Position numbers and translations under genes: made by a program. From an uncultured Chloroflexia bacterium (GTDB lineage: Bacteria > Chloroflexota > Chloroflexia > QHBQ01 > JADMIH01), in assembly GCA_963797095.1 (NCBI GenBank), contig CAWCNY010000006.1, positions 576,001 to 640,000 of the forward strand: DNA of 64,000 nucleotides. Reading direction: 5' to 3'. Below are positions 9,989 through 58,857 of the stretch, piece by piece; positions within the stretch are counted from its first letter, which is position 1, and each line of letters begins with the position of its first letter. A model generated the notes under the pieces. It did not search any database. It had not been told where the DNA came from and saw nothing but the letters and a program-made list of their open reading frames with translations.

Positions 9989-10032
9989 AAGATTGCAGGG
10001 CTGGGTTGTATATCACGATCTCAGGATAGAGG

Positions 10033-10104
10033 CCAGTACAACCAGTACAACCAGTACAACCAGTACAACCAGTACAACCAGTACAACCAGTGCAACCAGT
10101 ATAA
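10033..10104. repeat. Tandem 9-bp repeat (CCAGTACAA) x8 (6 perfect, 2 variant)
   Basis: Read directly; it ends at the AAGGAGA RBS of the downstream gene. Confidence 0.95.
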
Positions 10105-10115
10105 AGGAGAGTGTC

Positions 10116-10670
10116 ATGAGTGCGGCAAGTATTACACGCGCAAAGGGTCTGGCAGGTGCGAGCATGGTAATGGACGTTGCTCGCGTCGTGGGAGTTGGGG
10201 CCGCGGTAGTCGGAGTGGGGATGTTGCTCGGAGCGAGCAGCTACGAATCGGTGGTTATGGCGCCAAACTACAGCGCCAACATCCCCAACTCGCTGGAGAC
10301 GGCCCGGCAGTTCTTCAGCATCAATAACCCCGGTGTATTCTTCCGGGTGCTCGCTCCGGCTACCGAGGTGCTGGCACTCGTCTCCACAGTGCTGTGCTGG
10401 CGCACGAAGGGCGCGAGGTGGTGGATGCTGGCCGCGTTCGGCGCAATAATCGCAGCAGATGTTATCACCTTCACCTTTCACTATCCACGCAATGACCTGC
10501 TGTTCACTAATCCCCTGAGTGTACCGAAGGACCAGCTCATGCAGGCGGCAAATGAATGGGCTGTGGGCAATTATGCCCGCATAGCTCTGCTGGTAGTGGC
10601 TTTAGCCTTGGGCATGGTAGCCTTCAGCCGCTCCGTGCTGCACTTTGCCCGTGCGACCGACAAGGACTAA
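10116..10670 (+). CDS. DUF1772/anthrone oxygenase-like membrane protein
   Basis: AAGGAG RBS before ATG 10116; four hydrophobic helices, TFTFHYPRN and W..GNYAR pattern typical of DUF1772. Confidence 0.72.
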   Translation: MSAASITRAKGLAGASMVMDVARVVGVGAAVVGVGMLLGASSYESVVMAPNYSANIPNSLETARQFFSINNPGVFFRVLAPATEVLALVSTVLCWRTKGARWWMLAAFGAIIAADVITFTFHYPRNDLLFTNPLSVPKDQLMQAANEWAVGNYARIALLVVALALGMVAFSRSVLHFARATDKD

Positions 10671-43297: not shown

Positions 43298-44167
43298 ATG
43301 ACCAAACCATTCACAGGCTTCTCCAGCGACAGACAAAAGACCATCCGCGTGCCGGAGGGGTTCTTCGAAGATCTCTTGCCTCAGATCACGTCCGTGCTGG
43401 AGATGAAAGTCACCCTCTACCTCTTCTGGCGGCTTGCCAGGGGCGGGGCTGGCAGCGCAGCGCCCCGGATGGTCAGCCTGAGCGAACTCGAAGGCGATGA
43501 CAAGCTCAAGACGGCTCTATCACAGGGCAAAGGGCTGCGTCGCTTTGAGGAGGCGCTACGCGAAGGACTTGAACTGGCGGTTGGGAGAGGCACCCTGCTG
43601 CAGTTGCGTATCTCGGTCGCTCATCAGACACTTGCACTGCAGAACGGTCACTCGGAGAAGGCCAACGGCAATGGCAACGGCAATGGCAAACATGTTGAAG
43701 ATCCGGACCTGATGGAATACTGGTTCCTCCTGAACACCCGCGACAACAAAACCTGGATAGAAACGCTGGCCAACGGCGAAGTAGACATAGTACAAACGCC
43801 TCTGATCAGCTCTTACATGGACCTGCAGGATCAATCCGAGATCCGAAATCTAAAATCCAAAATCCTCATTGAGCGGCCCAACATCTACGTGCTTTATGAG
43901 CAAAACATCGGCCTCCTAACGCCGATCATGGCCGAGAAACTTCAGGATGCTGAGGGCCGCTACCCGAGAGAGTGGATCGAGGCGGCGTTCGAGGAAGCAG
44001 TGCTGAACAACAAGCGCAACTGGCGATATATAGAGCGAATACTTGAAAGATGGACTGCGGAGGGAAGGCAGAGTGGAAAAGATAGGCGATCTGTTGAGCA
44101 ATCTCTCGATCCCGACAAATATACAAAGGGGAAGTACGCCTTCCTCTTCCGACCCGAAGGACGTTAG
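43298..44167 (+). CDS. DnaD domain protein
   Basis: YEQNIGLLTP...WIEAAFEEAV..NKRNWRYIERILERW (DnaB_2/DnaD motif). Confidence 0.88.
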   Translation: MTKPFTGFSSDRQKTIRVPEGFFEDLLPQITSVLEMKVTLYLFWRLARGGAGSAAPRMVSLSELEGDDKLKTALSQGKGLRRFEEALREGLELAVGRGTLLQLRISVAHQTLALQNGHSEKANGNGNGNGKHVEDPDLMEYWFLLNTRDNKTWIETLANGEVDIVQTPLISSYMDLQDQSEIRNLKSKILIERPNIYVLYEQNIGLLTPIMAEKLQDAEGRYPREWIEAAFEEAVLNNKRNWRYIERILERWTAEGRQSGKDRRSVEQSLDPDKYTKGKYAFLFRPEGR

Positions 44168-45131: not shown

Positions 45132-48100
45132 TTACTTCTTGCTGCGTGCTCCGCGCCCGCCTGCCACACCTGACACCGCTTTCTTGGCCTCGCTCTGCTT
45201 GGGTGGTGGGGGCGTGCCCAGCCCGCCTGAGTTGAGGCCGGCAGTTATACCGCCATCTTTCTCGCGGGCCATGCGCTCCATCTCACTCTTCATCACTGAG
45301 AGGCGGTCATTGTCAGGGTCGAGCCTGAGCAAACGCCCATAAAGGCGAGCGGCTTGCCCGTATTCTCCCAGGGCCGTCAGTTGCTTGGCGAGACTGTAGT
45401 GGCCGGGCACATCCTGGGGCGCTAGGGCCAGTAGCTGGTGCAGCGCGGCAATGGCCTCTTCGGTACGGCCTTCATGGATGAACAGTTCGGCCAACGAGCG
45501 CTCTCCCTCCACTGCCTCCTTGAGCATACCGCTTTGCACATACATATTGAGCAGGTGCTGGCGGGCGTCCACGTCGCGCGGGGCGATGCGCACTATTCGC
45601 TCGTAGATCCCTATAGCCTGGTCGTGCTGCCCCATTGTGTAGTGCAGGTCGGCGGCCTTGCGATAGGTTCTGATAGCGTCCTTAAGCAGCCCAGCCTTCA
45701 ACTGTAGCTCGGCCAGCGTATTAAGCTCTCGCAACCCGTATTCGGTCATACCTAGCTTGAGATACATATCGCTCAACTTGCGGCGCACAGCCACGTTGTT
45801 CGGGGCCAGCTTGGACATATGGCCCAGCGTTTCCAGCGTCCGCTCGTTGTCGTTGTTCTTCTGGAAGAGCACCAGCAGGTCGTTCAGTTCGGCCAGTGCC
45901 TGGTTTAGCTGCCCCTGCCTGAAGTAAATATCGGCCAGGCGGGTGTAAACTGAGTAGTCGTTGGGCATGATCTGCTTGAGAGCTTGCAAAGCGCCCATCG
46001 CGCCGTCCCAGTTGTTCTGCGAGGCATTGGCCTCGGCCAGCGAGTAGTAAAGCTGGATAGGCTCCGATACCTGCGCGAACGCATACTGCGGCCTCGGAGA
46101 TTGGATCGTGAGGTCGCCGCTCTTCTGCGCAACATCATCCAGCCCGCCGTGAGTCTTGAGAATCTCCAGCACCCGGTTGTAATGCAGCGCCGCCACAGCC
46201 CCGCCACCCAGGTCCTTGCCGGTGCTCTTTCCCATGAGAGCCAGGTCGCCACGATACTGGCGCATCAGGATCTCAAGCAGAAGCCACGTCTTGTCGATGT
46301 CGCGCGTCTCGGCTGTAGCCAGCAACACCAGGCCCTGGTCCAGCGCGTCGGCTGCTATCTCCATAAGATCAGAGCGCCCAGCCAGCACCGCCAATCCATA
46401 ATAGATCGCGGGGTGAGGTTTCCTGAACCCTTCCGGCTTGAGCGCCATATTCAACTCTTCGAGGAAGAGGCGGTTAGTGCTCTTACGCTTGCTTGCGCGC
46501 TCCAGGATGCTCTGGAGCGCATCCCATGACGTGATCTCGTTGACCCCGGCGAGCGTCACATAGAGGCGGGCCAGCGCCAGGTCGTTGCCTGGGTCAAGAT
46601 GCAGGGCGCGGCTTAGTTCCAGCAGGGCATCGCTCGACTTGCCAAGCACGCTCAGATATGTGCCCATAGCGAGGGCCACTTCCGACGAGTTGGGCAATTT
46701 GGCCTTAAGCCCCTCGGCCTCTTCCAGGGCGCGCTCGACGTTGCCGTTACTGTAGTGCTTCTCGGCCACTCCCAGCAGCGCTTTGGCGGCCTCGTCCACC
46801 TTGCCCGCATCCAGCAAAAGTACCCCCAGTCTGCTCAGGAGCATCGGATTACCGGGGTCGATTTGCAGCAGCCTGCGACAGACTTCCGCTGCGTTTTCAG
46901 GATCGTTGCGCGCCACATACGTATCCATCACCGTCGTATATTTGGTAATGGCCTCTTCGACGCGACCGAGTTGCAGGTAAATATCGCCCAACATGATGTG
47001 GACGGGGAGATAGCCGGGATCGGCGCTCAGTACCGCCATACAGGAGTTGATGGCGACATCCCACTTGCCCTCGGCCATGGCCTGCTCGCCTTCCGCAATC
47101 AGCCTCTGCGCTCCCAGGGCACCTGTGCCGCCTTCGGAGAGACCGCCCGAGGGCATAAGCTGGCTATCGAGTGGGCTGCGTGCCAGGTAGTGGGTGCCTG
47201 GTACCACTTTGCGAGAGCTATCCTTCTTTGCTTCCTCGGCGGGTAGTGCCACCGTACCGGGCACCACCAGTTGGGCTGTTCCGTCCTCAGCCGTTTCTTC
47301 CACATCGCCGTGCTTAATGGGGCCGCTGGCGTTCAACTGGTCGCTGTTGCCCGTGCCCGTTACCGATGCTGCGCGCAAATATTCGGTGATCGAGCGGAGA
47401 GCGCCACCTGCTGTTCTCATCAGCGAGGTCGGCTTATCCTCCCGCACGGCGGCCTGAAGTCCCTCCGTCCCTCCCTCGATTATGGATGTGCCGCCTTCCT
47501 CGCTCAGCGGCCCGCCATGCCCCAGGTCTAGACGTGTAGCATCTTCGCCTACAGGAGCCACATCTGTAATATCGGGCAGGTGGCTCGGATCGAGCCAGTT
47601 GCTGCCGCCCTTGCTGATACCCATCAGCTTGCTCTGAATACTCTTGTTGTACAGGTCCTGGGCGCGTCTCTCTAACTCAGGTATCTGTGGGTGGTTGAAT
47701 TTCCGTGCTTTGAACAGGCTTACCAGGTTGCTGTACAGAGATGATGCCCTTCCCGGGTTGTGGTCGGCGATATGCGCGTCGGCGGTAGCCATGTAAAGCT
47801 CTATTAGCTCATCGGCTTCCGCCCGACCGATCTGTTCGAAGTCGATCATTCCGAGGGCGCGCTCGAAAGCGGTGGCTGCTTTGGCATAGGCGCGCTGGGC
47901 AGAATAGCACTGGCCCAGTACGTAGTTAGCCGACATCGCGAACTCGGGGTCCTGAAGGGCGCGTTCCAGCATGGGGATGGCGAGGTCGGGCCTGCCCATC
48001 TGCTGGTGGAGCAGTCCGGCGCTGTAGAACACCGCTCCGCGCTTGGCTCCAGCGCGTACTGCCCCATCGTAGAATTCGAGGGCGGCTCGGAAATCGCCCC

Positions 48101-48839
48101 TGGTTTGGGCTTCTGTGGCCTGCTCAACCAGGGCTAACGCCTCAGGTGGGTCTTCCTGCGCCTGGATCAGCCCTGTGCCTGGGGCAACCGACTGGCGCTG
48201 ACCGCCAAAATCGCTGCCGTCGAGAGTGACAGTGCCTGCGTTCTCGGCTATCTTTCGTTTGAGGTTGTATGCCCAGCGCCTGATCTCGGCGTTTTCGGGG
48301 TCGAGAGCAGACGCCGCTTCGGAATAACCCTGGGCCTCGGCCAGGTGGCCTTCTTCGAGGGCGATCTGCGACAGGGCCAGGTGCTCTGCTGCCTGGGCTT
48401 GCTTGTCGCCCACCTCCTGTGTGAGGTCGAGCAAGCGCACCCGCAATTCTTTATCTCTGGGGGTGGCTCTTGCCAGGTCCCGCAAGGCGCGAATTGCTTC
48501 GTGAAACTGGTTCTTTTGGGTGTAGAGGTCGGCCAGCCGCATGTAGGTGGCCCTGGCCTGGTCTGTGTTCCCTGTCGCGAGGTGGATCTCGGCGAGACGA
48601 TTCACCCCGAAGAGGTCGCCCGGGTCTTCATCGACGAGAGCCTCGTAGGCTTCGAGAGCCTGGGCCCAACGACGGAGACGAAACAGGCACTGTGCCATGT
48701 TCCGGCGAGCCGTCATATCGTCGGAGAACTCGGCGAGGGCGCGCCCATACTCTTTCATGGCGCGCTCCCACTGGTTAGCCCAGGCGTACTCGTGGGCGCG
48801 CTTCATTGCGGTGTCGAAAATTGCCTTATTGCCCGCCAT
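45132..48839 (-). CDS. Large tetratricopeptide repeat protein
   Basis: Numerous TPR motifs across 1235 aa, interrupted by a low-complexity linker. Confidence 0.85.
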   Translation of the reverse strand: MAGNKAIFDTAMKRAHEYAWANQWERAMKEYGRALAEFSDDMTARRNMAQCLFRLRRWAQALEAYEALVDEDPGDLFGVNRLAEIHLATGNTDQARATYMRLADLYTQKNQFHEAIRALRDLARATPRDKELRVRLLDLTQEVGDKQAQAAEHLALSQIALEEGHLAEAQGYSEAASALDPENAEIRRWAYNLKRKIAENAGTVTLDGSDFGGQRQSVAPGTGLIQAQEDPPEALALVEQATEAQTRGDFRAALEFYDGAVRAGAKRGAVFYSAGLLHQQMGRPDLAIPMLERALQDPEFAMSANYVLGQCYSAQRAYAKAATAFERALGMIDFEQIGRAEADELIELYMATADAHIADHNPGRASSLYSNLVSLFKARKFNHPQIPELERRAQDLYNKSIQSKLMGISKGGSNWLDPSHLPDITDVAPVGEDATRLDLGHGGPLSEEGGTSIIEGGTEGLQAAVREDKPTSLMRTAGGALRSITEYLRAASVTGTGNSDQLNASGPIKHGDVEETAEDGTAQLVVPGTVALPAEEAKKDSSRKVVPGTHYLARSPLDSQLMPSGGLSEGGTGALGAQRLIAEGEQAMAEGKWDVAINSCMAVLSADPGYLPVHIMLGDIYLQLGRVEEAITKYTTVMDTYVARNDPENAAEVCRRLLQIDPGNPMLLSRLGVLLLDAGKVDEAAKALLGVAEKHYSNGNVERALEEAEGLKAKLPNSSEVALAMGTYLSVLGKSSDALLELSRALHLDPGNDLALARLYVTLAGVNEITSWDALQSILERASKRKSTNRLFLEELNMALKPEGFRKPHPAIYYGLAVLAGRSDLMEIAADALDQGLVLLATAETRDIDKTWLLLEILMRQYRGDLALMGKSTGKDLGGGAVAALHYNRVLEILKTHGGLDDVAQKSGDLTIQSPRPQYAFAQVSEPIQLYYSLAEANASQNNWDGAMGALQALKQIMPNDYSVYTRLADIYFRQGQLNQALAELNDLLVLFQKNNDNERTLETLGHMSKLAPNNVAVRRKLSDMYLKLGMTEYGLRELNTLAELQLKAGLLKDAIRTYRKAADLHYTMGQHDQAIGIYERIVRIAPRDVDARQHLLNMYVQSGMLKEAVEGERSLAELFIHEGRTEEAIAALHQLLALAPQDVPGHYSLAKQLTALGEYGQAARLYGRLLRLDPDNDRLSVMKSEMERMAREKDGGITAGLNSGGLGTPPPPKQSEAKKAVSGVAGGRGARSKK

Positions 48840-49234: not shown

Positions 49235-50047
49235 ATGTCGCAGATCCAATACATATTTAACCAGATAACGGTCTCCACAGTGCTGGATGTGCTGGCGGTG
49301 GCGCTGATTTTCTACTGGCTGCTGGCGGTTGTGCAAGGCACGCGGGCTGTACAACTGGTGCGGGGGATCATAATATTGTGGCTGGCGTCGGCGCTGGTTT
49401 CGACCCTGTTTCAGCTATCGACATTGACATGGCTGATACGCAATTCGGGGGTGGCGCTGCTGGTGGCGATCCCGATCATATTCCAGCCGGAGCTAAGGCG
49501 GGCGCTGGAGCAGTTGGGGAGGACGGGGAACTGGCTTGGGCGTGGGCAGTTGGGGTCGTGGGGCGGGCGGAAGGTGCTGGAACGTGCTATCGAGGAAGTG
49601 TCTGCGGCGGCGGGATTGCTTGCGCGGCAGCAGCATGGGGCGCTGATAGTGCTGGAGCGGCAGACGGGGTTGCAGGACTATGCGGATAAGGGTGTGCAGT
49701 TGGACGCGGAAATATCGCGGCAGGTGCTGGCGAATATCTTCTATCCAAACTCACCACTGCATGATGGGGCGGTCATCATACGGAATGGGCGGATCGCAGC
49801 AGCAGGGGCGGTGCTGCCCCTGTCGGATAATGTGACGGGGCCGCAAAATTACGGGACGCGGCACCGGGCGGCAATCGGCATCTCAGAGTTTTCCGACGCG
49901 ATAGCGGTGGTGGTGAGCGAGGAGCGGGGGACCATATCGGTAGCGGCAAACGGTAGGTTGGTGGGTAATCTATCGAGCGAGCGGTTGCGCAAGCTGCTGT
50001 ACGAGCTATTTCACCTGAGAGACCCCGAAGCAAAAGACGGAACTTAA
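49235..50047 (+). CDS. cdaA: Diadenylate cyclase CdaA
   Basis: Three N-terminal TMs, FQPELRRALE, PLHDGA and GTRHRAA catalytic motifs. Confidence 0.95.
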   Translation: MSQIQYIFNQITVSTVLDVLAVALIFYWLLAVVQGTRAVQLVRGIIILWLASALVSTLFQLSTLTWLIRNSGVALLVAIPIIFQPELRRALEQLGRTGNWLGRGQLGSWGGRKVLERAIEEVSAAAGLLARQQHGALIVLERQTGLQDYADKGVQLDAEISRQVLANIFYPNSPLHDGAVIIRNGRIAAAGAVLPLSDNVTGPQNYGTRHRAAIGISEFSDAIAVVVSEERGTISVAANGRLVGNLSSERLRKLLYELFHLRDPEAKDGT

Positions 50048-50119: not shown

Positions 50120-50806
50120 TTGGGTGAGAAGATTGAACCAGAAAAGCCAGGTGATCTGGAGCTTGCCCTGGCAGCCCACGCAGGAGACGCCAACGCGCGA
50201 AACGCCCTCTACTTGAGGTACCGGTCGTTGATCGGCAAGCGCATCATACCCGCCAAGCGCCTGGCGCGAACCCTGGCAGAGCAAGGCTCACCAATTGGCC
50301 CCGATGATGTCGAGCAGGAGTCGTTCCTGATCTTCTGCCGCTTGCTTGAGGAGTGGAACCCTGAGACCGCGCCGTTCGCGCCCTTTCTCGCAGAGAAGAT
50401 TACGTACGCCGCTCACGATTATGTGCGTGAAGCGCAGCACCTGAGAAGCTCGCGCGTGCGATGGGCTCCTATAAAGGCCGACCCAGGCCTGCCCCTTAGC
50501 GTGAACTCGCACTGGGGTGCGCAGCACAAGGAAGGGGAAGCCACGGTATCTCCCCTGATAGGCAAACTCTATATGCTGGGGCCAGACGCCGCCGAAGTGG
50601 TCCTGAGCGCGGAGCAGTGGGAAGCCTTAGTCAGCCACTTGAGTGAGGACTGGGCGCGGCTCTTGCGCCTGCGCTTCTGGGAAGACAAGTCCAGCAAGCA
50701 GATCGCGCAAAGCGAAGGCTGCTCTCAGCGCACAGTAGACCGCACTATCAAGTCCGCGCTCGCCGATCTGCGCGAGATCGTCCAGGAAGAATGGGACATG
50801 CCCTGA
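50120..50806 (+). CDS. Alternative sigma-70 family sigma factor
   Basis: AHAGDANARNALY, DDVEQES..F...WNP...FAPF (region 2), LRLRFWEDKSSKQIA..EGCSQRTV (region 4); AGGAGG RBS. Confidence 0.8.
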   Translation: MGEKIEPEKPGDLELALAAHAGDANARNALYLRYRSLIGKRIIPAKRLARTLAEQGSPIGPDDVEQESFLIFCRLLEEWNPETAPFAPFLAEKITYAAHDYVREAQHLRSSRVRWAPIKADPGLPLSVNSHWGAQHKEGEATVSPLIGKLYMLGPDAAEVVLSAEQWEALVSHLSEDWARLLRLRFWEDKSSKQIAQSEGCSQRTVDRTIKSALADLREIVQEEWDMP

Positions 50807-50999: not shown

Positions 51000-51134
51000 A
51001 TGCTCGGAATGATGTACAAACAGGGCACCCGTTAGCAATGCCTGCGCTTGTGCCACGTTCGTGGGTTTATGCGACAACATTGGAGGCGCCCCTCGTCCTG
51101 AGGGGCCCGCTGACGACCTTCTGCAAAAACACAC

Positions 51135-51566
51135 TTACTCTGCAACGCGCAAAGCACATTCAGAAATGGAGGTGATAACATCCTGGGGCGTAGGCGGGTC
51201 GCCGGGCACACGAAAAGTGATCTCCGCATAATGGTTCAAGGGATAAGACGATAGCCCTGGCATCTCCAACTTGGCCCACTGTCCGCCGTTTATGGCAGCA
51301 TCACCGACGGCAATAATGGCGGACGGCTGTGGCAGCGAAGCCAGCTCCCGCAAGGTAGGATCGAGATTGCGTGCAAGCAGCAGTCCGGTCAGCAGGAGAA
51401 TATCAGCCTCCGCCGCCGACTGCACAAATCGCACGCCCATCTCACGCAGCCGCACCTCGAATCGAGGCGCAAGCAGCGAAGCGCACACCTCAGCATCCGC
51501 ATCCGGCCCGCCCATATGCAGATGGTACACAGCCACAGACTTCCGACGTGCCAAACCAGCAAACAT
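51135..51566 (-). CDS. NuoB/HycG-like small subunit lacking the Fe-S cysteines
   Basis: APRF....MGVRFV.S...ADILLLTG, AIIAVGD.A..GG, VPGDPPTP align with NuoB/HycG; the ligand Cys positions are replaced. Confidence 0.8.
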   Translation of the reverse strand: MFAGLARRKSVAVYHLHMGGPDADAEVCASLLAPRFEVRLREMGVRFVQSAAEADILLLTGLLLARNLDPTLRELASLPQPSAIIAVGDAAINGGQWAKLEMPGLSSYPLNHYAEITFRVPGDPPTPQDVITSISECALRVAE

Positions 51567-51577
51567 CTACGTCTCCT

Positions 51578-51609
51578 ACTCGTCACTCGTCACTCGTCAC
51601 TCGTCACTC
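51578..51609. repeat. Heptamer tandem repeat (ACTCGTC)x4
   Basis: Read directly. Confidence 0.85.
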
Positions 51610-53086
51610 ACGGCCCCGTCAGCCACGGCACCGCCGCCCACTGCAAGATTGGTTCCAGCCGAGATGCCGATACCAGGAACAGCGCGACCTGGGCCACTGC
51701 TAGCGCAAGCGTTAGCAGAAGCACCGGATCGGTAAGCCGTTCCGCCCAGTCGCTCTCTTCGACCATTGCATCATGCGACCATAGTCGGTCGCGGTTTGCC
51801 AGCCAGGAGGCCCCCACGAGTCCTGACCCCGCCAGCAGCATACCCAGCCACAGCCCTCCCGAATTGGCAGCGCTCTGGGCTATCAGCACCATACCCGCAA
51901 AGCCGCCAAACGGTGGAAGCCCCACCAGAGAAGCCACACCTATGATCACAGCCCATCTACCCCCTGCTACTAATAGGGGCACCGCCAGTGCGACGTTGCT
52001 CGCGACCAGGATAGCCCCCACCGCCCCGGTCTGCGAGCCGGAAAGGACCCCATACACCGCCCAGGACACCGCAACGGCTACAGTCATCGCCTTCAGGTTA
52101 GCGATCCTCGCATCCACCTCATCAGAAGCCCGCTTTGGCCGCTGGATAGTTCCCAGGGCGCGTAACCCCGCGAGTAGCGCGCCCATCGCGCCGAGCCACC
52201 CCGCAGCCGCGCCGCGTGCCAGGCTCCCCTCCACCGGGGCCAACAACAGCAGACCTGCTACCAGGGCCACCGGCGCGCACGCTCCAAGCGCGACGAGTGC
52301 TGCTGCGGGCGCAGACTTTATCAGGTCACCCCACGAGGCGGTGAAAGGCATACTACCTGCCCACACCAGCAACCCCACGGCGAGCAGACCTATACCGAAT
52401 TGCAGCAGCCCGCGATTCTCCAGGCTGAAACCGTAGCGCTCAATGAGAGCGGCACTAACAACCCAGATCGAAGCGGCGATAATAGCCAGAGCCAGGTGCT
52501 TGAAAGCCGCGGCGTACCCCCTGGCTTCCTGCCTGTTTTCAATACTATCTTCTCGGTCTTCTGCGGAATTCCCATCTTGCCTTGTTGCGCCTGTGGAACG
52601 CTCAGGCAGCGCCAACGCGGCTACTATTAGCGCCGGTCCAAAGAGAAGCAGTGGTGTGATAAAGGGATCGGCGGCCAACACGGCGCAGGTAAGGAGCGTT
52701 GCCGTACCGCCTAGGCCAACCGGTACCCAGGCCGCGCCTCTTTGCGATTCTACTTCCTCCGAGCTGGAAGGTATGATCCAGTAAAAGAGTGCAGCGCACA
52801 GCAGCGAAACATCGGCGGCAGTCAATATGTAGCGCGTTGGCGCTGACGTGGTAACAGCGATGCCGAAAAGATTGGCACCAACAGCCTCCGGTGTGAGGGC
52901 CAGGAATGTCGCTTCCAGGAGGAGTCCCGCGCACACAGCCAGCAAGCCACCGAGCCGCAGCCACGGACCGTAGTCGTCGGCAATCCTTTGCAGGCGCCGG
53001 GCCTCCATCAGCAGAGTACCAAGCGCACCCGCGATGAGGGGCACGATTATCGTCCAGAGGAGGGCCGGGCTATTCATCTTCGACAT
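51608..53086 (-). CDS. Divergent NuoN/HyfF-like antiporter-type membrane subunit
   Basis: AAFKHL, SMPFTASWGD....AP, SLVGLPPFGGF motifs; ~14 TMs. Confidence 0.7.
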   Translation of the reverse strand: MSKMNSPALLWTIIVPLIAGALGTLLMEARRLQRIADDYGPWLRLGGLLAVCAGLLLEATFLALTPEAVGANLFGIAVTTSAPTRYILTAADVSLLCAALFYWIIPSSSEEVESQRGAAWVPVGLGGTATLLTCAVLAADPFITPLLLFGPALIVAALALPERSTGATRQDGNSAEDREDSIENRQEARGYAAAFKHLALAIIAASIWVVSAALIERYGFSLENRGLLQFGIGLLAVGLLVWAGSMPFTASWGDLIKSAPAAALVALGACAPVALVAGLLLLAPVEGSLARGAAAGWLGAMGALLAGLRALGTIQRPKRASDEVDARIANLKAMTVAVAVSWAVYGVLSGSQTGAVGAILVASNVALAVPLLVAGGRWAVIIGVASLVGLPPFGGFAGMVLIAQSAANSGGLWLGMLLAGSGLVGASWLANRDRLWSHDAMVEESDWAERLTDPVLLLTLALAVAQVALFLVSASRLEPILQWAAVPWLTGP

Positions 53087-53882
53087 CCTCCGGTGCCGGC
53101 TCAGCCTCGAAGTCTGTCAGGTCAGCCTCCTCTGCAGCGGGTTGATCGACAGGTGCTACCACGACCAGTTCTGTTGAACGTGGAATTATCCCGTCGCGGG
53201 CATCGAAGATTGCGTTCAGGTTGAGCGTATCATATCGCTCGCCAACGGTGAGCCAGAGGTAGCTGGCAAGCGTACCGGCCCCAATCCTGGCGAGCGCGCC
53301 CAGTGCCAGCACCACACCGGGCGGCGTGCTGTTGCCCATCACGTACAAGAGGAGAAACGCCCCATTGAAAAGCGATAGGATACCAAGCCCCAATTTGACC
53401 GCCGATCTCCCCCCGTCAACAGTCAATACCAGCACAGCTGTGAGCACCACCCAGAAGAAAGCCAGCAAATCGCCTTCGTTGATGCCAAAGGGGTTAATCC
53501 GGGCGAGGCCATAACCCGCCACGCCTGCCAGTAATGCCAATCCCCACAGGAGAATCCAATCCTGTGGTTGGAATGTCCTCGAACGTCGTGTGCGCCTGCG
53601 TACAGCCGGGCGCGTGATACTGGCGGGTGGGTATGTTTGGTCGTCGGGCGATGCCGTCCGAAAGATAGTGAGCGCTATAACTACACAGGTCGAGAGGGCG
53701 GCTACAAACTCGACCAATGCAACCAGGCTGCCCGCGCCAGCCGATGGTGATATCCACACGAGCCAGCCTATCCCTGCCCACTGGAGAAAGAAAGCGCCCA
53801 AAGCGAGCCTCGTGTCCTTCTGGGTAAGTAGGAGGAACCCGCCGGTAGCGATAATAATGGTAGGTAGTAGATTTGGCATCAT
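53070..53882 (-). CDS. HyfE-like membrane subunit (divergent)
   Basis: ~7 TMs, R.A..AF.LQ pattern, located between two antiporter-like genes. Confidence 0.55.
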   Translation of the reverse strand: MMPNLLPTIIIATGGFLLLTQKDTRLALGAFFLQWAGIGWLVWISPSAGAGSLVALVEFVAALSTCVVIALTIFRTASPDDQTYPPASITRPAVRRRTRRSRTFQPQDWILLWGLALLAGVAGYGLARINPFGINEGDLLAFFWVVLTAVLVLTVDGGRSAVKLGLGILSLFNGAFLLLYVMGNSTPPGVVLALGALARIGAGTLASYLWLTVGERYDTLNLNAIFDARDGIIPRSTELVVVAPVDQPAAEEADLTDFEAEPAPEDVEDE

Positions 53883-55711
53883 CGTGTGATCGCCAGCAGC
53901 GTCAATAGCGCCAGCAGTACATCCAGGGGCAGAAAATATCGTCCTTCCAGGCGTTCCATAAGCCTGCCCAACGCTGCTCCCAGCCTGCCAAGGAGCGCCC
54001 CTGCGTCATAAATACCGCGCTCAAGCCAGGCTAGCGAAAGCCACCATACGAAGGCAGGCGGCGCGGGGCGCAAGGCTTGTGGGGTTTCCGAGGGCGCTTC
54101 TCTGGTCCTGGGTCGTCCTTCTTGCCCCGCCTTCAATAAACCCGCTGAACGATCCTGAAGCCTGTCAAGCGCCGTAGGGAGCAACGCACCTGCCTCTACG
54201 CGTGACGTGGCCGATGCTCGAATGAGCCAGCCCAGCAACGCAAGCAGAATCAACCCCGCACCCAGCATGGTGAGCGGCAGCATCACATCCCCTTCGACAA
54301 TGCCAGGCCAGGGCAGCCCCAGCGACTGACCTATGCCTGCGACATCTGCCATCCTCTCCACGTATGGCAGCCACAAACCCGGTAGGATGCCGCCCATGAC
54401 GACAATGCCTGCGAGCACGTAGCCTATCAGGTCCAGCACCACACGGTAACGTTGGTCCGCTGAAGCGTCAGACGTTGTCCGCTCTTGCGCCGTCGATTGG
54501 GCGAGATGCAAGGCTGTACCGCAGGCTGACAGGACGGCCGCCCCCAGCAGGATAATCGTGAGGGAGGGAGTGCGCGATTCCAGTAAGCTTGTGGACAGCA
54601 GCCACAAGCCAACGAAACCGGCGGTGATGGGCACACCCGCCAGTGATAAGCCCGCTACCGTGCGGGTCATCCAGGCATAGCCGGGCGCTCGGTCAGCCAT
54701 TTCCAGGGCGAGCATCCCAAGCCCGAAGGTGGCGAACAGGGCCAGCGCAGCCCATCGCCCGGCGGGACTATCCATTCCAAGCGCCCACACGACCAATCCC
54801 AGCCAGTACGCAGTTATGGCGGCCTGCCACCGCGAGGTGCCTGCCCACATGTAGACGCCTGCGCCGCCCACTACGGCAGTAATGCCTCCGAGCACCGCCA
54901 GGGTCGCCATCGTGCTTGCCCACTCGCCGGGCGTCGAGCCTGTGAGCGCCCCTTCGGTGATCAGCGCCTGCAACCGGAGTATAAGCAGCAACACGGGCGC
55001 GCCCAGGGCCAACCCCTGTACTGCCTGCATAGCCCCCTCTCCTGTGAGCGCGCTCCAGCCTGTGAATGGCACCAGCCCCACCCACAACACCACCCACCCC
55101 ACGACCAGCGCAAGGGGCCAGAGGGTAAGCGCGGATAGCGACAGTGTATCCAGGCTGTATTCGCCGCCGGTGGTCCGTCCTACCAGCAGAACAGCGCCCA
55201 ACAGGAGGACCGCGCCGGTTGCAATCGCCACCCTTTGCCGGGCGAACCAATCGGCTTTGACTTCGTCTGAAAGCGCCCACACAAGGAGCACAACCAGCAG
55301 AATCTGAGCGGCGAACGCACGCAAATCCAGCGTAAAAGCGAGGCTATAGAGCGCAGCGATCAGCCCCACGCTGGCGGCAATCTTGAGGGGTGGGTTCTGT
55401 TCGTCCGCTCCTGATCCCACCTTAAGTACGGCGAGCAGGCCAATTGCCAGCACCCACCCACCAAGCCCATTCGAGAGGGCATCGCTTCTGAAGACAGATG
55501 CCCCAAGCCAGGCCGCGATATTATCGCCGGCTACCGGTTTGCCCGCCCCATATGCGAATCCTTCAAGTATGAGGCTCGTTGTGAACGCGGCCGCTATTGC
55601 CAGGATGGCAACGATACGTGCGATCCAGTCGCGGCGCGTCCCGGCAGGCAACAGGCCGAGGGCAGCGCACACCAATGCCCCTATTATCAATGTCAGTAAA
55701 GCGTATACCAT
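53879..55711 (-). CDS. Divergent NuoL/HyfB-like antiporter-type membrane subunit
   Basis: FRSDALS, GLVPFTGW, SLAGVPITAGF, GILPG motifs; ~16 TMs. Confidence 0.7.
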   Translation of the reverse strand: MVYALLTLIIGALVCAALGLLPAGTRRDWIARIVAILAIAAAFTTSLILEGFAYGAGKPVAGDNIAAWLGASVFRSDALSNGLGGWVLAIGLLAVLKVGSGADEQNPPLKIAASVGLIAALYSLAFTLDLRAFAAQILLVVLLVWALSDEVKADWFARQRVAIATGAVLLLGAVLLVGRTTGGEYSLDTLSLSALTLWPLALVVGWVVLWVGLVPFTGWSALTGEGAMQAVQGLALGAPVLLLILRLQALITEGALTGSTPGEWASTMATLAVLGGITAVVGGAGVYMWAGTSRWQAAITAYWLGLVVWALGMDSPAGRWAALALFATFGLGMLALEMADRAPGYAWMTRTVAGLSLAGVPITAGFVGLWLLSTSLLESRTPSLTIILLGAAVLSACGTALHLAQSTAQERTTSDASADQRYRVVLDLIGYVLAGIVVMGGILPGLWLPYVERMADVAGIGQSLGLPWPGIVEGDVMLPLTMLGAGLILLALLGWLIRASATSRVEAGALLPTALDRLQDRSAGLLKAGQEGRPRTREAPSETPQALRPAPPAFVWWLSLAWLERGIYDAGALLGRLGAALGRLMERLEGRYFLPLDVLLALLTLLAITR

Positions 55712-55734
55712 CTACATTTCAGGCTTATCTGCCA

Positions 55735-56862
55735 TCATCGCTCGGTGCAAGGCAGACAAAGGTCAAGAGATAACAGCAAGAGCCTCAAGTCCTCCAAATG
55801 CGCGCCGCGTAGCAGGCCCGGCAAGATTGCCAGCGATGGATATGATCCGGCGCTCAGGTGGATGCCGCGCAACCCCTCCGGCGCGCCGTCCACCCAGCAA
55901 AATACCTCGCCGCGCGGCCCCTCCACTCTGCTTATCCCCTGCCCGGCGCGCAATTCAGCCGCTCCCCTTGTCCTTACAGGCCCGCCGGGCAGGTCGTCCA
56001 GCGCTTGCTCGACCACCCGGAAACTCTCCAGGCATTCCAGCAGGCGCACCGCCAGTCGCGAGAAGGCATCGCCGTTGCGCTGTACAATCATGGTCACTGC
56101 CTCGTCCTCATACGCGCCAGTGGGGAAAGCCGCCCGAAGGTCCAGCGCCACTCCGCTGGCACGCGCCACCGGTCCGCGCAGCCCGGCAGCTACAGCCTCC
56201 CTACCTCTAATCACCCCCAGGCCCACCAGCCGGTCGGCGATACCCTTGTTATTGATAATAGACACTATATGCGCGCGTAGGGGTCGTTCTACATGGCGCA
56301 TCGCCAGCGCCAGCGACCTGCTCGCGGTTTCGTCGCTATTGTGACTGAGGCCGCCGAAAGTTATTAGCCCAGGTTGCTGGCGCGCTCCCGCCCACTCGCT
56401 CAATGCGTGCACCACGCGCTCCCGCAGGTCGCGCAACGCTGCTTCGCGCTCAGGCAAGTTCAGTGCTTCCATTGTGTCGGCGGCGTTTCCCAGGTGCGCG
56501 ATGATCCGCTCGATCTCGGCCAGCACTAGCCGTAGGTAGGCGGCGCGTGGCGGCACCAGCAGGTGCGACATGCTTTCCACAGCCTGCACAAAACACAGCA
56601 AGTTGGCCTGCGAGCAAGGAGCGCACAGGCTCTCAACCACCGACAGGGCGCGTATCCAATCCAGCCCCCCATCGGCGACCCGCTCCTCAAGGCCAATGTG
56701 GTTGTACCCGTATTCCGCTTCGGCGACCTCTATCGTGGCCGAAGTCGTCAGCATATCGCTTGCGGCTTTGACTTCGAGCCTGATCTGCATGGGCCAGGGA
56801 AGCCAGGGGCTGTAGGGGCCGATCAATTGTGGTTTGTGTATTGCAGGTTGCGAATCGATCAT
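55735..56862 (-). CDS. NuoD/group-4 [NiFe]-hydrogenase large subunit-like protein
   Basis: IGP, GYNH.GLE, LCAPC, RA.YLR...AEIERI..HL, GPVARASG..DLR, EGPRGE, terminal SLDLCLPCTER. Confidence 0.85.
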   Translation of the reverse strand: MIDSQPAIHKPQLIGPYSPWLPWPMQIRLEVKAASDMLTTSATIEVAEAEYGYNHIGLEERVADGGLDWIRALSVVESLCAPCSQANLLCFVQAVESMSHLLVPPRAAYLRLVLAEIERIIAHLGNAADTMEALNLPEREAALRDLRERVVHALSEWAGARQQPGLITFGGLSHNSDETASRSLALAMRHVERPLRAHIVSIINNKGIADRLVGLGVIRGREAVAAGLRGPVARASGVALDLRAAFPTGAYEDEAVTMIVQRNGDAFSRLAVRLLECLESFRVVEQALDDLPGGPVRTRGAAELRAGQGISRVEGPRGEVFCWVDGAPEGLRGIHLSAGSYPSLAILPGLLRGAHLEDLRLLLLSLDLCLPCTER

Positions 56863-56898
56863 GCGTGAAAAGTAAGATGTGTTCCGTACTCAGGCCGC

Positions 56899-57453
56899 TT
56901 ACCGGAAAATCACCGACAGGCGCACTTGAAGCTCGCCTTCGGAAAGCCGGGCCGACGGGTAGATGCTTCCTATGGAATCCAGGATGCCGGTTGACGTGGT
57001 GATAATTATCGTATACACAATGGATTCGGTGGCGTAGAAGTAACGAACTACAGCCTCGCCCATCGAACGCGGTGGCGCATCCGGTGGCACACTGTCAGTC
57101 TTGCGTTTGCGCCTGCGGCGGCCAAGTGGTGGCATCTCCTCGACTGCGCTGCCCCGGCTTTCCGGAGTCGTGGCAAATGCTTGAGCGAGGCGCGCACGCT
57201 CGCCCGTCATGCTGATGAAGATCGCACCGGCACGCCGGAAAGCGCCGGCGATCTCGGCAGCATGCGCGTCGCGGAAATAGAGCCTGACCTCGCGGTCGTC
57301 CTCTTCGCGCACCACCGCGAAGGCCGCAAGCTCTCTACCCAGCGTCTCTTCAGCACCCTCAGGTTCGTCGTACCAGCCGTTTTCGCCCGGCTCATCCCAG
57401 CTTGGTAGATCATCACCGGGTATGTGGGACGCGCCGTTATTGTGTCCATCCAT
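56899..57453 (-). CDS. NuoC/EchD-like subunit (divergent)
   Basis: FISMTG, VRYFY, SIGSIYPSA.L.E.EL...L.V.F resembles the NuoC S....PAA.W.ERE..D.FGI.F motif. Confidence 0.62.
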   Translation of the reverse strand: MDGHNNGASHIPGDDLPSWDEPGENGWYDEPEGAEETLGRELAAFAVVREEDDREVRLYFRDAHAAEIAGAFRRAGAIFISMTGERARLAQAFATTPESRGSAVEEMPPLGRRRRKRKTDSVPPDAPPRSMGEAVVRYFYATESIVYTIIITTSTGILDSIGSIYPSARLSEGELQVRLSVIFR

Positions 57454-57639
57454 AGAATTATTACTCGGTAGATCGCCTTATTCATATAATTTTAGCTTTT
57501 GGGCGACAGGGGTTACTATAACAGCCGTTCGCGGGGAGCGTCAAGCGTGGTGGATACTGCGTATTGCGTATTCTCGGCCACTTCTATCGCTGTCGATCAT
57601 CAATCGCCGGGAGGTCATTGGTGCTATAATTAGTGAGCT

Positions 57640-58857
57640 ATGCACGTAGCGTTCAACGGATATTTCTGGGATCAACCTCGCACAGGGTCGGGCCAATATT
57701 CGAGGCATTTGTGGTCTGCTCTCGATGCGATAGCCCCTCCATCCGACTGTTTCACTCTATTACTGCCCCCAGGCATGCCCCCACTTGAGGTACCCGTAAG
57801 TGAGCGTGCTGTAGTTGCGGAAAGCGCGCCTATCCCTCTAGTTGGTGGCAGGCTGGGCAAACTGGACAAGATTACGTGGGAGAGTGCGGGAGTGGCCCGT
57901 GCCACGCACCGCACCCGCGCTGATATCCTCCACGCCCCATACCTGTCCGCTCCCCTGCCCGCGCTAAGGCTGCCCAGGATAGTTGTTACAGCGCACGATA
58001 TGATCCCGTGGGTCGTCCCCGGCTACGCAGGGCCTCTCTCCGTCCGCCTCTATCTGCGGCTTGCCACTGCCTGCGTGCGGAGGGCCGACCTGATCCTGGC
58101 CGATTCCAATGCCTCTCGCCGCGACGTAATAAAAGTGCTGAAAGTTCTCCCCGGCAAAGTGCACACCGTTCACCTGGGCATGGAGAGCCACCCAGACTAT
58201 ACTCCACAGCAAATAGCCGAAGTGAAAGCAAAGCATGGTCTGCCTGAGGACTATGTGTTCTATCTGGGCGGGTTCGACAGGCGGAAGAATGTGCCGTTGC
58301 TCTTACGTGCATGGCACTCCGCCCTCTCCCGAATGGATGGGCCAACTCCTGTGCTGGCGATAGGCGGGAGCGTGCCCAAACCAGGCGGCGTCTTCCCCGA
58401 TGTAAGAGGCGAGGCGCGGCAACTGGGATTCGGCCAGGAAGGCGGACCTGTACACTTCCTGGGCCGTGTGAGCGAGCAAGATAAGCCATTGCTTATGGCC
58501 GGGGCGCGTCTGTTTGCCTACCCTTCGGCCTACGAAGGTTTTGGTCTCGACCCACTTGAAGCCATGTCCGTGGGGTGTCCTGTAGTCTCTTCCTCAGGCG
58601 GTTCGCTGGAGGAAGTGGTCGGTACCGCCGGCCTCGTGGTCCCGCCCAACGACGAGGCGGCGCTGGCGAACGCTATTGTGTGCGCCTGGAACAACCCTGA
58701 CCTTCGTGCTGACCTATCCGGGAAAGGCCGCCTGCGGGCCATGAACTTCACGTGGCACAGAACCGCCGAGCAAACGCTTGCGCTGTATAGAAAGCTTCAA
58801 CTTCACACAAACCAGGAACTCGGAACTCGGAACTCGGAACTCGGAACTCGGCATTAG
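57640..58857 (+). CDS. Glycosyltransferase family 4
   Basis: TAHD, RKNV, PSAYEGFGLDPLEAM. Confidence 0.93.
   Translation: MHVAFNGYFWDQPRTGSGQYSRHLWSALDAIAPPSDCFTLLLPPGMPPLEVPVSERAVVAESAPIPLVGGRLGKLDKITWESAGVARATHRTRADILHAPYLSAPLPALRLPRIVVTAHDMIPWVVPGYAGPLSVRLYLRLATACVRRADLILADSNASRRDVIKVLKVLPGKVHTVHLGMESHPDYTPQQIAEVKAKHGLPEDYVFYLGGFDRRKNVPLLLRAWHSALSRMDGPTPVLAIGGSVPKPGGVFPDVRGEARQLGFGQEGGPVHFLGRVSEQDKPLLMAGARLFAYPSAYEGFGLDPLEAMSVGCPVVSSSGGSLEEVVGTAGLVVPPNDEAALANAIVCAWNNPDLRADLSGKGRLRAMNFTWHRTAEQTLALYRKLQLHTNQELGTRNSELGTRH
58815..58851. repeat. Heptamer tandem repeat (GGAACTC)x5 inside the 3' end of the GT4 gene
   Basis: Read directly; translated as ELGTRNSELGTR. Confidence 0.9.

Follow-up and report, generated by a model that had tools for sequence, protein, structure and literature searches.

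The window, a 64,000-nucleotide stretch of an uncultured Chloroflexia genome (G000, the source genome), contains an operon of six genes on the minus strand: a NuoC-like protein, a large subunit, three divergent membrane proteins and, last, a small subunit. Two of the membrane proteins appear antiporter-like, an assignment that is weak (E values of 1.6e-4 and 2.3e-3), and one belongs to no recognised family. The features, in order of position, are as follows:

51135 to 51566, minus strand: NuoB/MbhJ/HycG-like small subunit, 143 aa, assigned by PF01058 and structural matches; without [4Fe-4S] ligands
51578 to 51609, no strand: heptamer tandem repeat ACTCGTC, 4.6 copies, inside the 41-nt spacer that separates the 492-aa gene from the small-subunit gene, shortly ahead of the ribosome-binding site
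51608 to 53086, minus strand: membrane subunit, 492 aa, about 11 hydrophobic segments; distant MrpD/MbhH (antiporter-like) relative
53070 to 53882, minus strand: membrane subunit, 270 aa, about 7 hydrophobic segments, C-terminal tail acidic; no recognised family
53879 to 55711, minus strand: membrane subunit, 610 aa, about 14 hydrophobic segments; probably paralogous to the 492-aa subunit and likewise antiporter-like, but very divergent
55735 to 56862, minus strand: NuoD/MbhL/HycE-like large subunit, 375 aa (PF00346, E = 9.6e-39)
56899 to 57453, minus strand: soluble protein, 184 aa, Cys-free; probably a truncated NuoC/MbhK-like protein with an inserted basic, disordered loop

The small-subunit reading frame begins with ATG and is preceded, 7 nt upstream, by AGGAG. 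Counting the heptamer array in the adjoining spacer, the genome has 67 arrays of this kind. The protein matches PF01058 (NuoB 20 kDa subunit) above the curated cutoff (E = 5.9e-9; 36.2 bits versus a cutoff of 27), and among solved structures it is closest to MbhJ (6cfw_J; E = 1e-10) and HycG (7z0s_G; E = 3.4e-8). An AlphaFold2 model (pLDDT 89.7) has the flavodoxin-like NuoB fold, superposes on MbhJ with a TM score of 0.83 and an rmsd of 1.7 Å, and retrieves 111 PDB matches with E ≤ 0.001 in Foldseek. Family match, solved relatives and model superposition all agree with the original prediction, which had called the gene a NuoB/HycG homolog.

NuoB and hydrogenase small subunits carry four Cys that hold the proximal or N2 [4Fe-4S] cluster. 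In pairwise and family-level alignments, the corresponding positions of the window small subunit read P21 (Cys1), D24 (Cys2), A90 (Cys3) and D123 (Cys4), although HMMER pairwise alignments instead place A23 or a one-residue gap at the Cys2 position. The claim that all four ligands had been replaced is therefore upheld, and the motifs on which it was based are present in the protein (GGPDADAE, GDAA, and PGDPP, together with APRF and ADILLLTG). That claim had also put Asp at or next to three of the ligand positions; the alignments place Asp at two of them (D24 and D123) and beside the two others (D22 and D89). The two remaining Cys do not take over the ligand positions: C28 lies four residues past the Cys2 position and is not conserved (Trp in 56 of 77 relatives, Cys in 19), nor is C137, which lies within the C-terminal helix (Ala in 56 of 76, Cys in 10). 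Across the small-subunit family, Cys is never found at ligand positions 1, 2, and 4 (0/77), and Cys is missing altogether from 36 of 80 proteins. The Cys3 position is still Cys in 25 of 80, indicating that ligand loss is complete in the window protein but was stepwise across the family.

The nearest outgroup of the small subunit, at 36 to 38% identity, is found in the Chloroflexota family f13 (L026, L027, L030, and L048; P0210 and P0227), which is sister to the window family in the tree (SH-aLRT 92). These relatives resemble the window family in that their Cys4 position is Asp or Asn and their large subunit reads D-L-C, not D-P-C; they differ in keeping Cys1 to Cys3, the canonical CGTCGxSH motif and the Glu in the large subunit, and a NuoH-like gene adjoining the small-subunit gene. 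A path of stepwise cluster loss is thus visible, from nearest relatives that read CCCD to family members with a relic Cys3. Such intermediates raise the idea that non-canonical ligands still hold a cluster, for instance Asp or His together with the Cys90 of some members, by analogy with 3Cys+Asp [4Fe-4S] proteins. Asp ligation of [4Fe-4S] clusters is known in other proteins, and the nearest relatives (CCCD or CCCN) and the 25 members with Cys at position 3 are consistent with it. However, the window protein lacks Cys at every ligand position, more than a third of its relatives are Cys-free throughout, and we know of no [4Fe-4S] cluster held without any thiolate ligand. We regard retention of a cluster as highly improbable.

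Loss of the cluster is not unique to this lineage: a quick phylogeny suggests at least five independent losses, and Cys-free small subunits appear to have arisen repeatedly, in Chloroflexota and beyond. Two further proteins (P0081 and P0082) were considered as a sister clade of the window family and rejected; their loci are Ehr-type operons with a Cys-free large subunit, and the tree places them with the Ehr-type sequences.

The acidic residues in the old cluster pocket allow another reading, which goes back to the carboxylate site suggested in the original prediction and in which D22, D24, D89, and D123, perhaps with H15 and H17, form a putative carboxylate/histidine site for another metal or cation. 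Candidate ions would be Na+, Ca2+, Mg2+, or Fe/Mn, and the site might serve in, for example, ion coupling or as a non-cluster redox center. Besides the placement of Asp at or beside every ligand position, this reading draws on conservation in the family (D22 in 71/77, D24 in 68/77, D89 in 76/80, H15 in 68/71, and H17 in 69/71, with H15, H17, D22, and D89 at 92 to 97%). H17 stands where Cys-containing relatives have Asp or Asn; D123 (59/77) is otherwise replaced by Ser or Asn, which are still O-donors; and acidic or polar O-donors (D, E, N, and S) recur at the ligand positions of other Cys-free lineages (DADN, DEDS, and DTED). Yet D89 is ancestral, since Cys-containing relatives likewise read GDC, and D123 is inherited, being common to the nearest relatives with three Cys. 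No ligand position is invariant in the family: D123 varies (Ser in 10 and Asn in 6 of 77), and the D24 position is Ala in 7 of 77. The four-thiolate cluster is itself negative, and the acidic replacements may merely maintain local electrostatics. Taken together, we consider an ion site in the vacated pocket unlikely, though it deserves some weight.

The small subunit is under purifying selection. dN/dS was 0.138 between the window gene and that of L006 (dS 1.10) and 0.112 between L007 and L008 (dS 0.99), values at which the gene is not a pseudogene. It occurs in 20 of the 25 other genomes of the genus-level group g1, a soil Chloroflexia lineage, with intact, single-copy reading frames, and in 10 of the 11 g1 genomes that are at least 90% complete (source genome counted). 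It was found in none of the 14 genomes of the neighboring families f84 and f85 and in none of 400 genomes sampled from other Chloroflexota. Among 11 genome loci, 6 have the six genes in identical order, 4 end at contig breaks in a manner consistent with that order, and 1 (L014) is a lone small-subunit gene. The flanking genes (a glycosyltransferase, an ECF-like sigma factor, CdaA, and a TPR protein) are also syntenic across the lineage, which we take as conserved genome order and not as a functional link. That all classical catalytic residues are gone and most subunits fall below family cutoffs could be read as decay, with the gene a pseudogene or the operon in the course of being lost. The low dN/dS, the intact single-copy frames, the conserved gene order, and the compensating Cys swap in the large subunit described below all run counter to this reading, to which we give hardly any credence.

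In contrast to the small subunit, the large subunit keeps its cysteines. It matches MbhL (6cfw_L; E = 5.4e-34) and HycE (7z0s_E; E = 6.5e-29), and its two CxxC pairs, C80/C83 and C369/C372, which are the paired motifs expected of a group 4 [NiFe] hydrogenase, align with the Ni-Fe ligands of both; the C terminus reads ...CTER. Four Cys are present in 89 of 91 family large subunits, distributed as CxxC+CxxC (63), CxCC+CxxS (20), and CxCC+CxxC (6); the remaining 2 lack one Cys, and CxxC+CxxS does not occur (0/91). By these comparisons, the four-Cys site is evidently under selection, with what appears to be a compensating Cys swap in 20 of the 91 proteins. The surroundings of the site have changed. 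The consensus flanking the CxxC pairs differs from that of hydrogenases, the L1 motif being without R, G, or H and DLC replacing DPC, and the L1 His has become Asn in 90 of 92 family large subunits. The Glu of HPxxxEP, the proton-relay Glu of hydrogenases and a residue expected of group 4 [NiFe] enzymes, is found in all 25 outgroup large subunits. Only 3 of 76 family members keep it, the other 73 having lost it; the window protein has Trp at this position, which corresponds to the His of NuoD. The Arg of GPRGE and the Asp preceding the C-terminal Cys pair, both hydrogenase active-site residues, are retained.

The complex could, then, still be a [NiFe] enzyme, its four Cys holding a Ni-Fe center at which H2 reacts with no Fe-S relay; such an enzyme might hand reducing equivalents straight to a membrane quinone in the adjacent cavity or serve as an H2 sensor. 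The alignment of both CxxC pairs with the Ni-Fe ligands of MbhL and HycE, the near-universal four Cys, the retained GPRGE Arg, and the presence of hypD and hypF in the source genome are in its favor. Set against these are the loss of the Glu and the L1 His and the 20 members with CxCC+CxxS, in which a ligand is shifted to a new backbone position, a change that would suit a simple tetrathiolate site better than a precise Ni-Fe geometry. The distribution of the Hyp maturation genes likewise does not follow that of the operon, as would be expected if they occurred wherever the enzyme does: HypD was found in 8 of the 25 related genomes, versus 20 of 25 for the small subunit. Five genomes were checked in which the small subunit occurs with a large subunit that has four Cys (G407, G408, G410, G411, and G413), and in all five HypD and full-length HypF were not found, an absence that comes from metagenome-assembled genomes 90 to 93% complete and is not proof. 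Given that the four-Cys site is held in five genomes without detected HypD or full-length HypF, the site is probably not [NiFe], and we judge a surviving [NiFe] enzyme very unlikely.

The membrane subunits are more divergent. The 492-aa subunit has no Pfam match; its NCBIfam match to MrpD is weak (3.5e-5), and a PDB profile search returned MrpD (6z16_D; 1.6e-4) and MbhH (6cfw_H; 1.8e-4). At the canonical Lys positions of TM7 and TM12 it has W/R/C and M/T in low-confidence alignments. The 610-aa subunit has no match in Pfam or in a PDB profile search with its family; a weak NCBIfam match to NuoM (9.7e-4), an ESM Atlas lead to Proton_antipo_M, and a family-to-family hhalign comparison with the 492-aa subunit (E = 0.0023; probability, 12.7%; 212 columns) point to an antiporter-like paralog. 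The 270-aa subunit, which is kept in six loci, matched nothing in Pfam, NCBIfam, or the PDB (profile search with its family), and its ESM Atlas lead to a NuoK/HyfE-like protein (Oxidored_q2) scored only 0.85. A NuoH-like subunit was not detected when the 610-aa and 270-aa families were compared by hhalign with six NuoH/HycD-like proteins (probability, 0.1%; weak alignments).

For the 184-aa protein, Pfam gave no match, the PDB profile search nothing usable, and AlphaFold2 a poor model (pLDDT 45.8); hhalign against NuoC-like domains gave a probability of 59.5% (E = 9e-5). A predicted complex of this protein with the large and small subunits scored 0.89, versus 0.00 for the best control. Of 80 solved complexes, 58 reached that mark, as did 2 of 110 mismatched pairs; at least 38% of contacts were shared between runs, with partner pLDDT of at least 65. 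This result may reflect resemblance to solved NuoC-NuoD pairs. The protein has no Cys, and no ferredoxin-type CxxCxxCxxxC motif occurs in any frame of positions 51000 to 57600. Neither part of the Fe-S relay of a group 4 [NiFe] hydrogenase, the proximal cluster or a NuoI-like subunit with two [4Fe-4S] clusters, was found in the operon.

Among solved complexes, the Mbh of Pyrococcus furiosus (PDB 6CFW) provides the best matches for the small (MbhJ), large (MbhL), and 492-aa (MbhH) subunits, and the window large subunit, like MbhL, ends at a C-terminal Arg. In Mbh, MbhJ holds a proximal [4Fe-4S] cluster, MbhN is ferredoxin-like with two clusters, and MbhM is NuoH-like; none of these was found in the window operon. 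Mbh also has a [NiFe] site, which in the window operon is doubtful. For both the small and the large subunit, the E. coli formate hydrogenlyase (PDB 7Z0S) ranks next among solved matches, with collinear motifs; however, HycG carries the four Cys (GGCNGC..., GAC, and PGCPP in the alignment), and HycE is a NuoC-D fusion. HycE also has a C-terminal extension that is cleaved. Complex I shares the fold and the small/large pairing of NuoB and NuoD, and a canonical copy is also present in the genome (C6:260-263 kb), but NuoB binds cluster N2, whereas the window small subunit has no cluster ligands. In NuoD, the Ni-Fe Cys are lost, and His and Tyr serve for quinone. The marks of complex I (an N2 cluster on NuoB, NuoH, and the quinone-site His on NuoD) were not found in the window operon.

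A close parallel is Ehr, a group of membrane-bound complexes derived from group 4 hydrogenases, with antiporter-like subunits, that are presumed not to metabolize H2. As in Ehr, group 4 large and small subunit homologs are joined by antiporter-like membrane subunits in one operon. The small subunit is Cys-free in every Ehr-type operon examined (genome loci L057 and L058; metagenome loci L067, L072, and L077), and the His-to-Asn change is common to both large subunits (..AAN and ..QAN). These Ehr-type operons, however, pair Cys-free small with Cys-free large subunits, and their NuoL-, NuoH-, and HyfE-like subunits accompany a large subunit of about 520 aa in which NuoC and NuoD parts are fused; in the window, the NuoC-like protein is separate, and a NuoH-like or HyfE-like subunit is not recognizable. 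In the tree, the window small-subunit family lies apart from the Ehr-type sequences, as sister to Cys-containing ones. Ehr has been defined by a large subunit without the Ni-Fe CxxC motifs (PMC6349859, PMC10432482, and PMC7304191), and by this definition the window operon, whose large subunit keeps both motifs, falls outside the group. Retention of the four-Cys site in the large subunit is the unusual feature of this operon relative to the others with a Cys-free small subunit. No description of the loss of small-subunit cluster ligands was found in the literature searched, although Marreiros et al. 2013 or Coppi 2005 may already describe Cys-free Ehr small subunits.

Because the small subunit lacks an iron-sulfur cluster, the usual electron transfer by such a complex is probably impossible, and the complex would have another role. 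We favor the explanation, which we think more likely than not, that the protein is a cofactor-free structural part of a membrane complex that descends from a hydrogenase and has lost the iron-sulfur electron wire in its entirety. In this model, the small subunit would still pair with the large subunit and help to dock the soluble cap onto the membrane part, with D22, D24, D89, and D123 filling the vacated cluster pocket and maintaining its negative charge. The complex would no longer couple ferredoxin to H2 or quinone chemistry. Its sole candidate cofactor would be the four-Cys metal site of the large subunit, most likely occupied by a single metal ion and not by [NiFe], and our best guess is that a change at this site is passed on to the divergent Mrp-like membrane subunits. 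Several points count against this explanation. A [NiFe] site is possible in the source genome, where hypD and hypF occur together with two further [NiFe] hydrogenases; the large subunit retains the GPRGE Arg and the Asp ahead of its C-terminal Cys pair; the genomes in which hyp genes were not found are incomplete; and the acidic residues and two His of the pocket are 77 to 97% conserved, which would seem to exceed the need of simple filling. An ion-moving role for the complex is weakly founded, given the apparent non-Lys TM7/TM12 positions in both antiporter-like subunits and the lack of a detected NuoH-like subunit, as read from very weak alignments.

A more far-reaching version of this scheme, which we offer as a long shot, is a coupling machine without an electron wire. 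Its only input would be the four-Cys metal center or a carboxylate-bound cation in the small subunit, and metal or gas binding, or a change in thiol redox state, at this input would be relayed conformationally to the two Mrp-type subunits. If true, a NuoB-NuoD "adaptor" could drive or gate membrane events without Fe-S redox chemistry.

Common to complex I, the membrane hydrogenases, and Ehr is a NuoB-NuoD module that converts redox chemistry into work at the membrane. A wider question is to what extent such a module can function without redox centers. The window family is a natural, strongly selected version of the module that lacks Fe-S clusters throughout yet has a four-Cys site with an apparently compensating ligand swap. 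In existing annotation, the proteins are called "Ni,Fe-hydrogenase III small/large subunit." With the large-subunit CxxC motifs alone as classifier, surveys of soil metagenomes would count the family as H2 metabolizing, which is probably wrong.

The original prediction read the following gene as a NuoB/HycG homolog in which all four ligands of the proximal [4Fe-4S] cluster (Cys1 to Cys4) are replaced:

51566 to 51135, minus strand: small-subunit ORF, 143 aa, ATG start, AGGAG 7 nt upstream

The encoded protein matched Pfam PF01058 (NuoB 20-kDa subunit; E 5.9e-9, 36.2 bits, cut-off 27), and its top match among 45 distinct solved chains at E ≤ 1 was MbhJ (6cfw_J; E 1e-10), from the membrane-bound hydrogenase of Pyrococcus, with HycG of E. 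coli formate hydrogenlyase also found (7z0s_G; E 3.4e-8). None of the curated NCBIfam NuoB cut-offs was reached, all lying far above its scores (e.g., 31.3 bits versus 116). An AlphaFold2 model (pLDDT 89.7; input of 27 relatives) superposed on MbhJ with a TM score of 0.83 and an rmsd of 1.7 Å; it had 111 PDB matches at E ≤ 0.001, and the 50 listed were complex I or hydrogenase small subunits only. The PF01058, MbhJ, and HycG matches and the structural similarity to MbhJ bear out the predicted homology. Every predicted motif (GGPDADAE, GDAA, PGDPP, APRF, and ADILLLTG) was present, and alignments placed P21, D24, A90, and D123 at Cys1 to Cys4, respectively, confirming replacement of all four ligands; D24 at Cys2 comes from family-level alignments, with A23 or a gap given instead by pairwise HMMER alignments. 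The two remaining cysteines lay off the ligand positions and were not conserved among close relatives (hereafter, the family): the C28 column held W in 56/77 and C in 19/77, and the C137 column held A in 56/76 and C in 10/76.

A search of 5.8 billion proteins yielded 210 candidates, of which 83 clusters reached E ≤ 1e-3; the close family consists of 80 of these 83 (E ≤ 8.4e-31). All members with an organism given by the source came from Chloroflexia or Chloroflexota MAGs, and the annotation "Ni,Fe-hydrogenase III small subunit" recurs in several sources.

Residues at the four ligand positions in the 80 family clusters
Cys1: P 68, A 7; Cys in 0/77
Cys2: D 68, A 7; Cys in 0/77
Cys3: A 31, C 25, N 10, S 8; Cys in 25/80
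Cys4: D 59, S 10, N 6; Cys in 0/77

Proteins were entirely free of Cys in 36/80 clusters. The small-subunit dN/dS was 0.138 between the window and related locus L006 (dS 1.10) and 0.112 between loci L007 and L008 (dS 0.99); large-subunit values were similar. These ratios mark a gene under selection, not one in decay, whose product is a small subunit lacking the cluster; the original observation of ligand loss is confirmed.

Asp occupies two ligand positions of the 143-aa protein and adjoins the other two, which had raised the idea of a carboxylate site for a different metal or ligand. Conservation within the family is compatible with such a site (H15, 68/71; H17, 69/71; D22, 71/77; D24, 68/77; D89, 76/80; D123, 59/77, the remainder S or N), and D, E, N, or S also occurs at ligand positions in other Cys-free lineages. 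However, none of the ligand positions is invariant in the family, D89 beside Cys3 predates the loss, being found in Cys-containing relatives, and D123 is inherited from 3-Cys relatives. Moreover, because a four-thiolate [4Fe-4S] cluster carries negative charge, we infer that the acidic replacements may merely preserve local charge. We consider a metal or cation site in the pocket unlikely.

The small subunit is encoded with five other proteins by closely packed genes on the minus strand (spacers of 36, 23, and 41 nt; overlaps of 4 and 17 nt), the products being, in order, 184, 375, 610, 270, 492, and 143 aa. The identical set and order occurred at 6/11 genome loci, and 4 further loci were truncated by contig ends yet compatible with it.

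Homology of three operon products
375-aa protein: NuoD/MbhL/HycE homolog (PF00346, 9.6e-39; 6cfw_L, 5.4e-34; 7z0s_E, 6.5e-29)
492-aa protein: distant relative of MrpD/MbhH (PDB profile E 1.6e-4 and 1.8e-4)
610-aa protein: paralog of the 492-aa protein, diverged even further (hhalign over 212 columns: E 0.0023, probability 12.7%)

The atlas lead for the 610-aa protein was Proton_antipo_M; the 270-aa protein had no match in Pfam, NCBIfam, or PDB profile searches, and its atlas lead, NuoK/HyfE, had a score of just 0.85. Charged residues were conserved in hydrophobic segments of the 492-aa (E58, D140, K196, and R377), 270-aa (E58, E136, and R199), and 610-aa (E50, R179, R246, and H402) proteins. 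The two key proton-path Lys of MbhH, in TM7 and TM12, correspond in weak alignments to W/R/C and M/T in the 492-aa family and, for TM7, to Leu in the 610-aa family.

No Pfam or PDB match was found for the 184-aa protein, which folded poorly when modeled alone (pLDDT 45.8). A profile alignment to NuoC-like domains scored E 9e-5 (probability 59.5%) and took in the C-terminal stretch S..P.A...E.E....F. When modeled with the large and small subunits, its predicted complex scored 0.89 (best control, 0.00), against a mark reached by 58/80 solved complexes and 2/110 mismatched pairs; runs had at least 38% of contacts in common, with partner pLDDT of at least 65. This modeled association supports a NuoC-like role, though the pass may reflect resemblance to solved NuoC-NuoD pairs. 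The gene (56899-57453) also encodes a strongly basic insert at residues about 95 to 130 (RRRRKRK in the window), predicted to be disordered and poorly conserved, which separates two halves of the conserved domain. Profile comparison found no NuoH/HycD-like subunit in the operon (probability 0.1%), and the ferredoxin-type motif CxxCxxCxxxC was absent from every frame of 51000-57600. The eleventh locus, L014 of a Chloroflexia MAG, has a solitary Cys-free small-subunit gene (8992-9468) flanked by gpsA and a GH18 glycosidase gene, with none of its five usual operon partners in the 9 kb upstream.

Both CxxC pairs of the window's large subunit are retained and align with the ligands of MbhL and HycE. 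In the sources consulted, by contrast, an Ehr complex is one whose large subunit lacks the Ni-Fe Cys (PMC6349859, PMC10432482, PMC7304191), and HydDB leaves out Ehr and Nuo as nonhydrogenases (PMC5037454). We surveyed the 91 of 95 large-subunit family clusters that span both motifs.

Large-subunit motif combinations (91 clusters)
CxxC + CxxC: 63
CxCC + CxxS: 20
CxCC + CxxC: 6
Second N-terminal Cys lost: 2
CxxC + CxxS: 0

The last Cys was missing only in large subunits with an extra Cys in the first motif, which argues from sequence that four thiolates are required. Because this four-Cys site is selected and kept, the complex falls outside this definition of Ehr. The surroundings of the site are not hydrogenase-like. 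In the N-terminal HPxxxEP motif, the Glu, which is the proton-relay residue of [NiFe] hydrogenases, was kept in 25/25 outgroups and in only 3/76 family members; it is W in the window's protein, at a position aligning with the quinone-site His region of NuoD from the same genome. The His following the first CxxC was Asn in 90/92 family large subunits.

HypD was detected in 8/25 related genomes and full-length HypF in 9/25. Five genomes (G407, G408, G410, G411, and G413; 90-93% complete, 1-2% contamination) all encoded the small subunit together with a large subunit of the four-Cys type (CxxC+CxxC in three, CxCC+CxxS in two), and neither HypD nor full-length HypF was found in any of them, making a Ni-Fe(CN)2CO centre unlikely there. 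Four Cys holding a single metal would be the simpler reading. For the window this argument is indirect, since its genome has hypD, hypF, and, elsewhere, two standard [NiFe] hydrogenases (C4:153-167 kb and C2:623-626 kb), one with hypF and hypD nearby. The same genome carries one canonical complex I locus (C6:260-263 kb).

Within the window's order, 20/25 other genomes of its genus-level clade carried the small subunit (17/22 leaving out G402-G404; the tallies include genomes flagged as unpublished), as did, counting the window's own, 10/11 that were at least 90% complete. The small subunit was found in 0/14 genomes from two other families of the order, and 400 other sampled Chloroflexota genomes (46 of the same class) gave no family-level match (next best score, 130 bits versus 230).

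Three genes neighboring the operon are syntenic with it in related MAGs, which we read as conserved genome order, and perfect heptamer tandem repeats lie in intergenic or gene-end positions:

50120-50806, plus strand: ECF-like sigma-70 factor, convergent to the end of the operon
49235-50047, plus strand: CdaA-type diadenylate cyclase, beyond the sigma factor
45132-48839, minus strand: 1235-aa TPR protein, beyond the sigma factor
51578-51609: ACTCGTC x4.6
58815-58851: GGAACTC x5.3
43833-43865: AATCCGA x4.7

The GAGTGAC/GTCACTC heptamer by itself forms 67 arrays of 3 to 11 copies over the genome's 8 contigs, an arrangement that resembles the STRR sequences (short tandemly repeated heptamers) known from filamentous cyanobacteria.

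When 1.84 billion representatives were searched with the profile, 4681 matched at E ≤ 1e-3, and among the best 150, which were aligned leaving out P0209 and P0216 (>400 aa), ligands were missing in many lineages; the few named ones were Chloroflexota or Dehalococcoidia MAGs. Our literature search found no description of small-subunit cluster-ligand loss. Genome context revealed three kinds of partner. Ehr-type operons (L057 and L058; metagenome loci L067, L072, and L077) combine NuoL-, NuoH-, HyfE-, and NuoM-like genes with a roughly 520-aa large subunit that has no Ni-Fe Cys and ends in ..NLSY[AS]G[NT]DL; their small subunits have D, A, D, and N at Cys1 to Cys4. Operons of G235 and G291 pair a canonical large subunit (ERICGAC..SH and ELCYSC.DR) with a roughly 295-aa small subunit, comprising a Cys-rich N terminus (11 Cys) and a NuoB part without ligands. 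At these loci (L059, G235:C119, about 7690-10203; L060, G291:C91, 6486-8998), the NuoB domain reads D, T or C, E, D beside fully canonical Ni-Fe motifs, seemingly a genuine hydrogenase without the standard proximal cluster. The third kind comprises the family's nearest relatives, from Chloroflexota family f13 (36-38% identity), which keep Cys1-3 and have Asp/Asn at Cys4, a possible 3Cys+Asp [4Fe-4S] site. These relatives (L055, L056, and L061; proteins P0210 and P0227) lie in a short operon of large subunit, 720- to 780-aa membrane protein, small subunit, and then a NuoH-like gene.

In a quick IQ-TREE analysis of 81 small subunits, chosen nonrandomly for group coverage and with ligand columns removed, the window's family was a clade (SH-aLRT 99), sister (92) to 3-4-Cys sequences of f13-type relatives. 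Parsimony gave 15 changes for the Cys-free state, at least 5 forced by well-supported branches, counts that are rough given 124 columns and many open forks. The pattern suggests stepwise ligand loss in the window's lineage: Cys4 was the first to go, changing to Asp while cluster binding was still feasible, Cys1 and Cys2 followed, and Cys3, retained in 25/80, is still decaying.

Cluster loss in the small subunit is thus recurrent and probably an ordinary trait of Ehr-type operons. Four of the five group 4 hydrogenase features tested were absent from the six-gene complex. As judged from its genes, the small subunit belongs to a lineage-restricted, hydrogenase-derived complex without an Fe-S relay, whose mode of working would be most like that of an Ehr complex.
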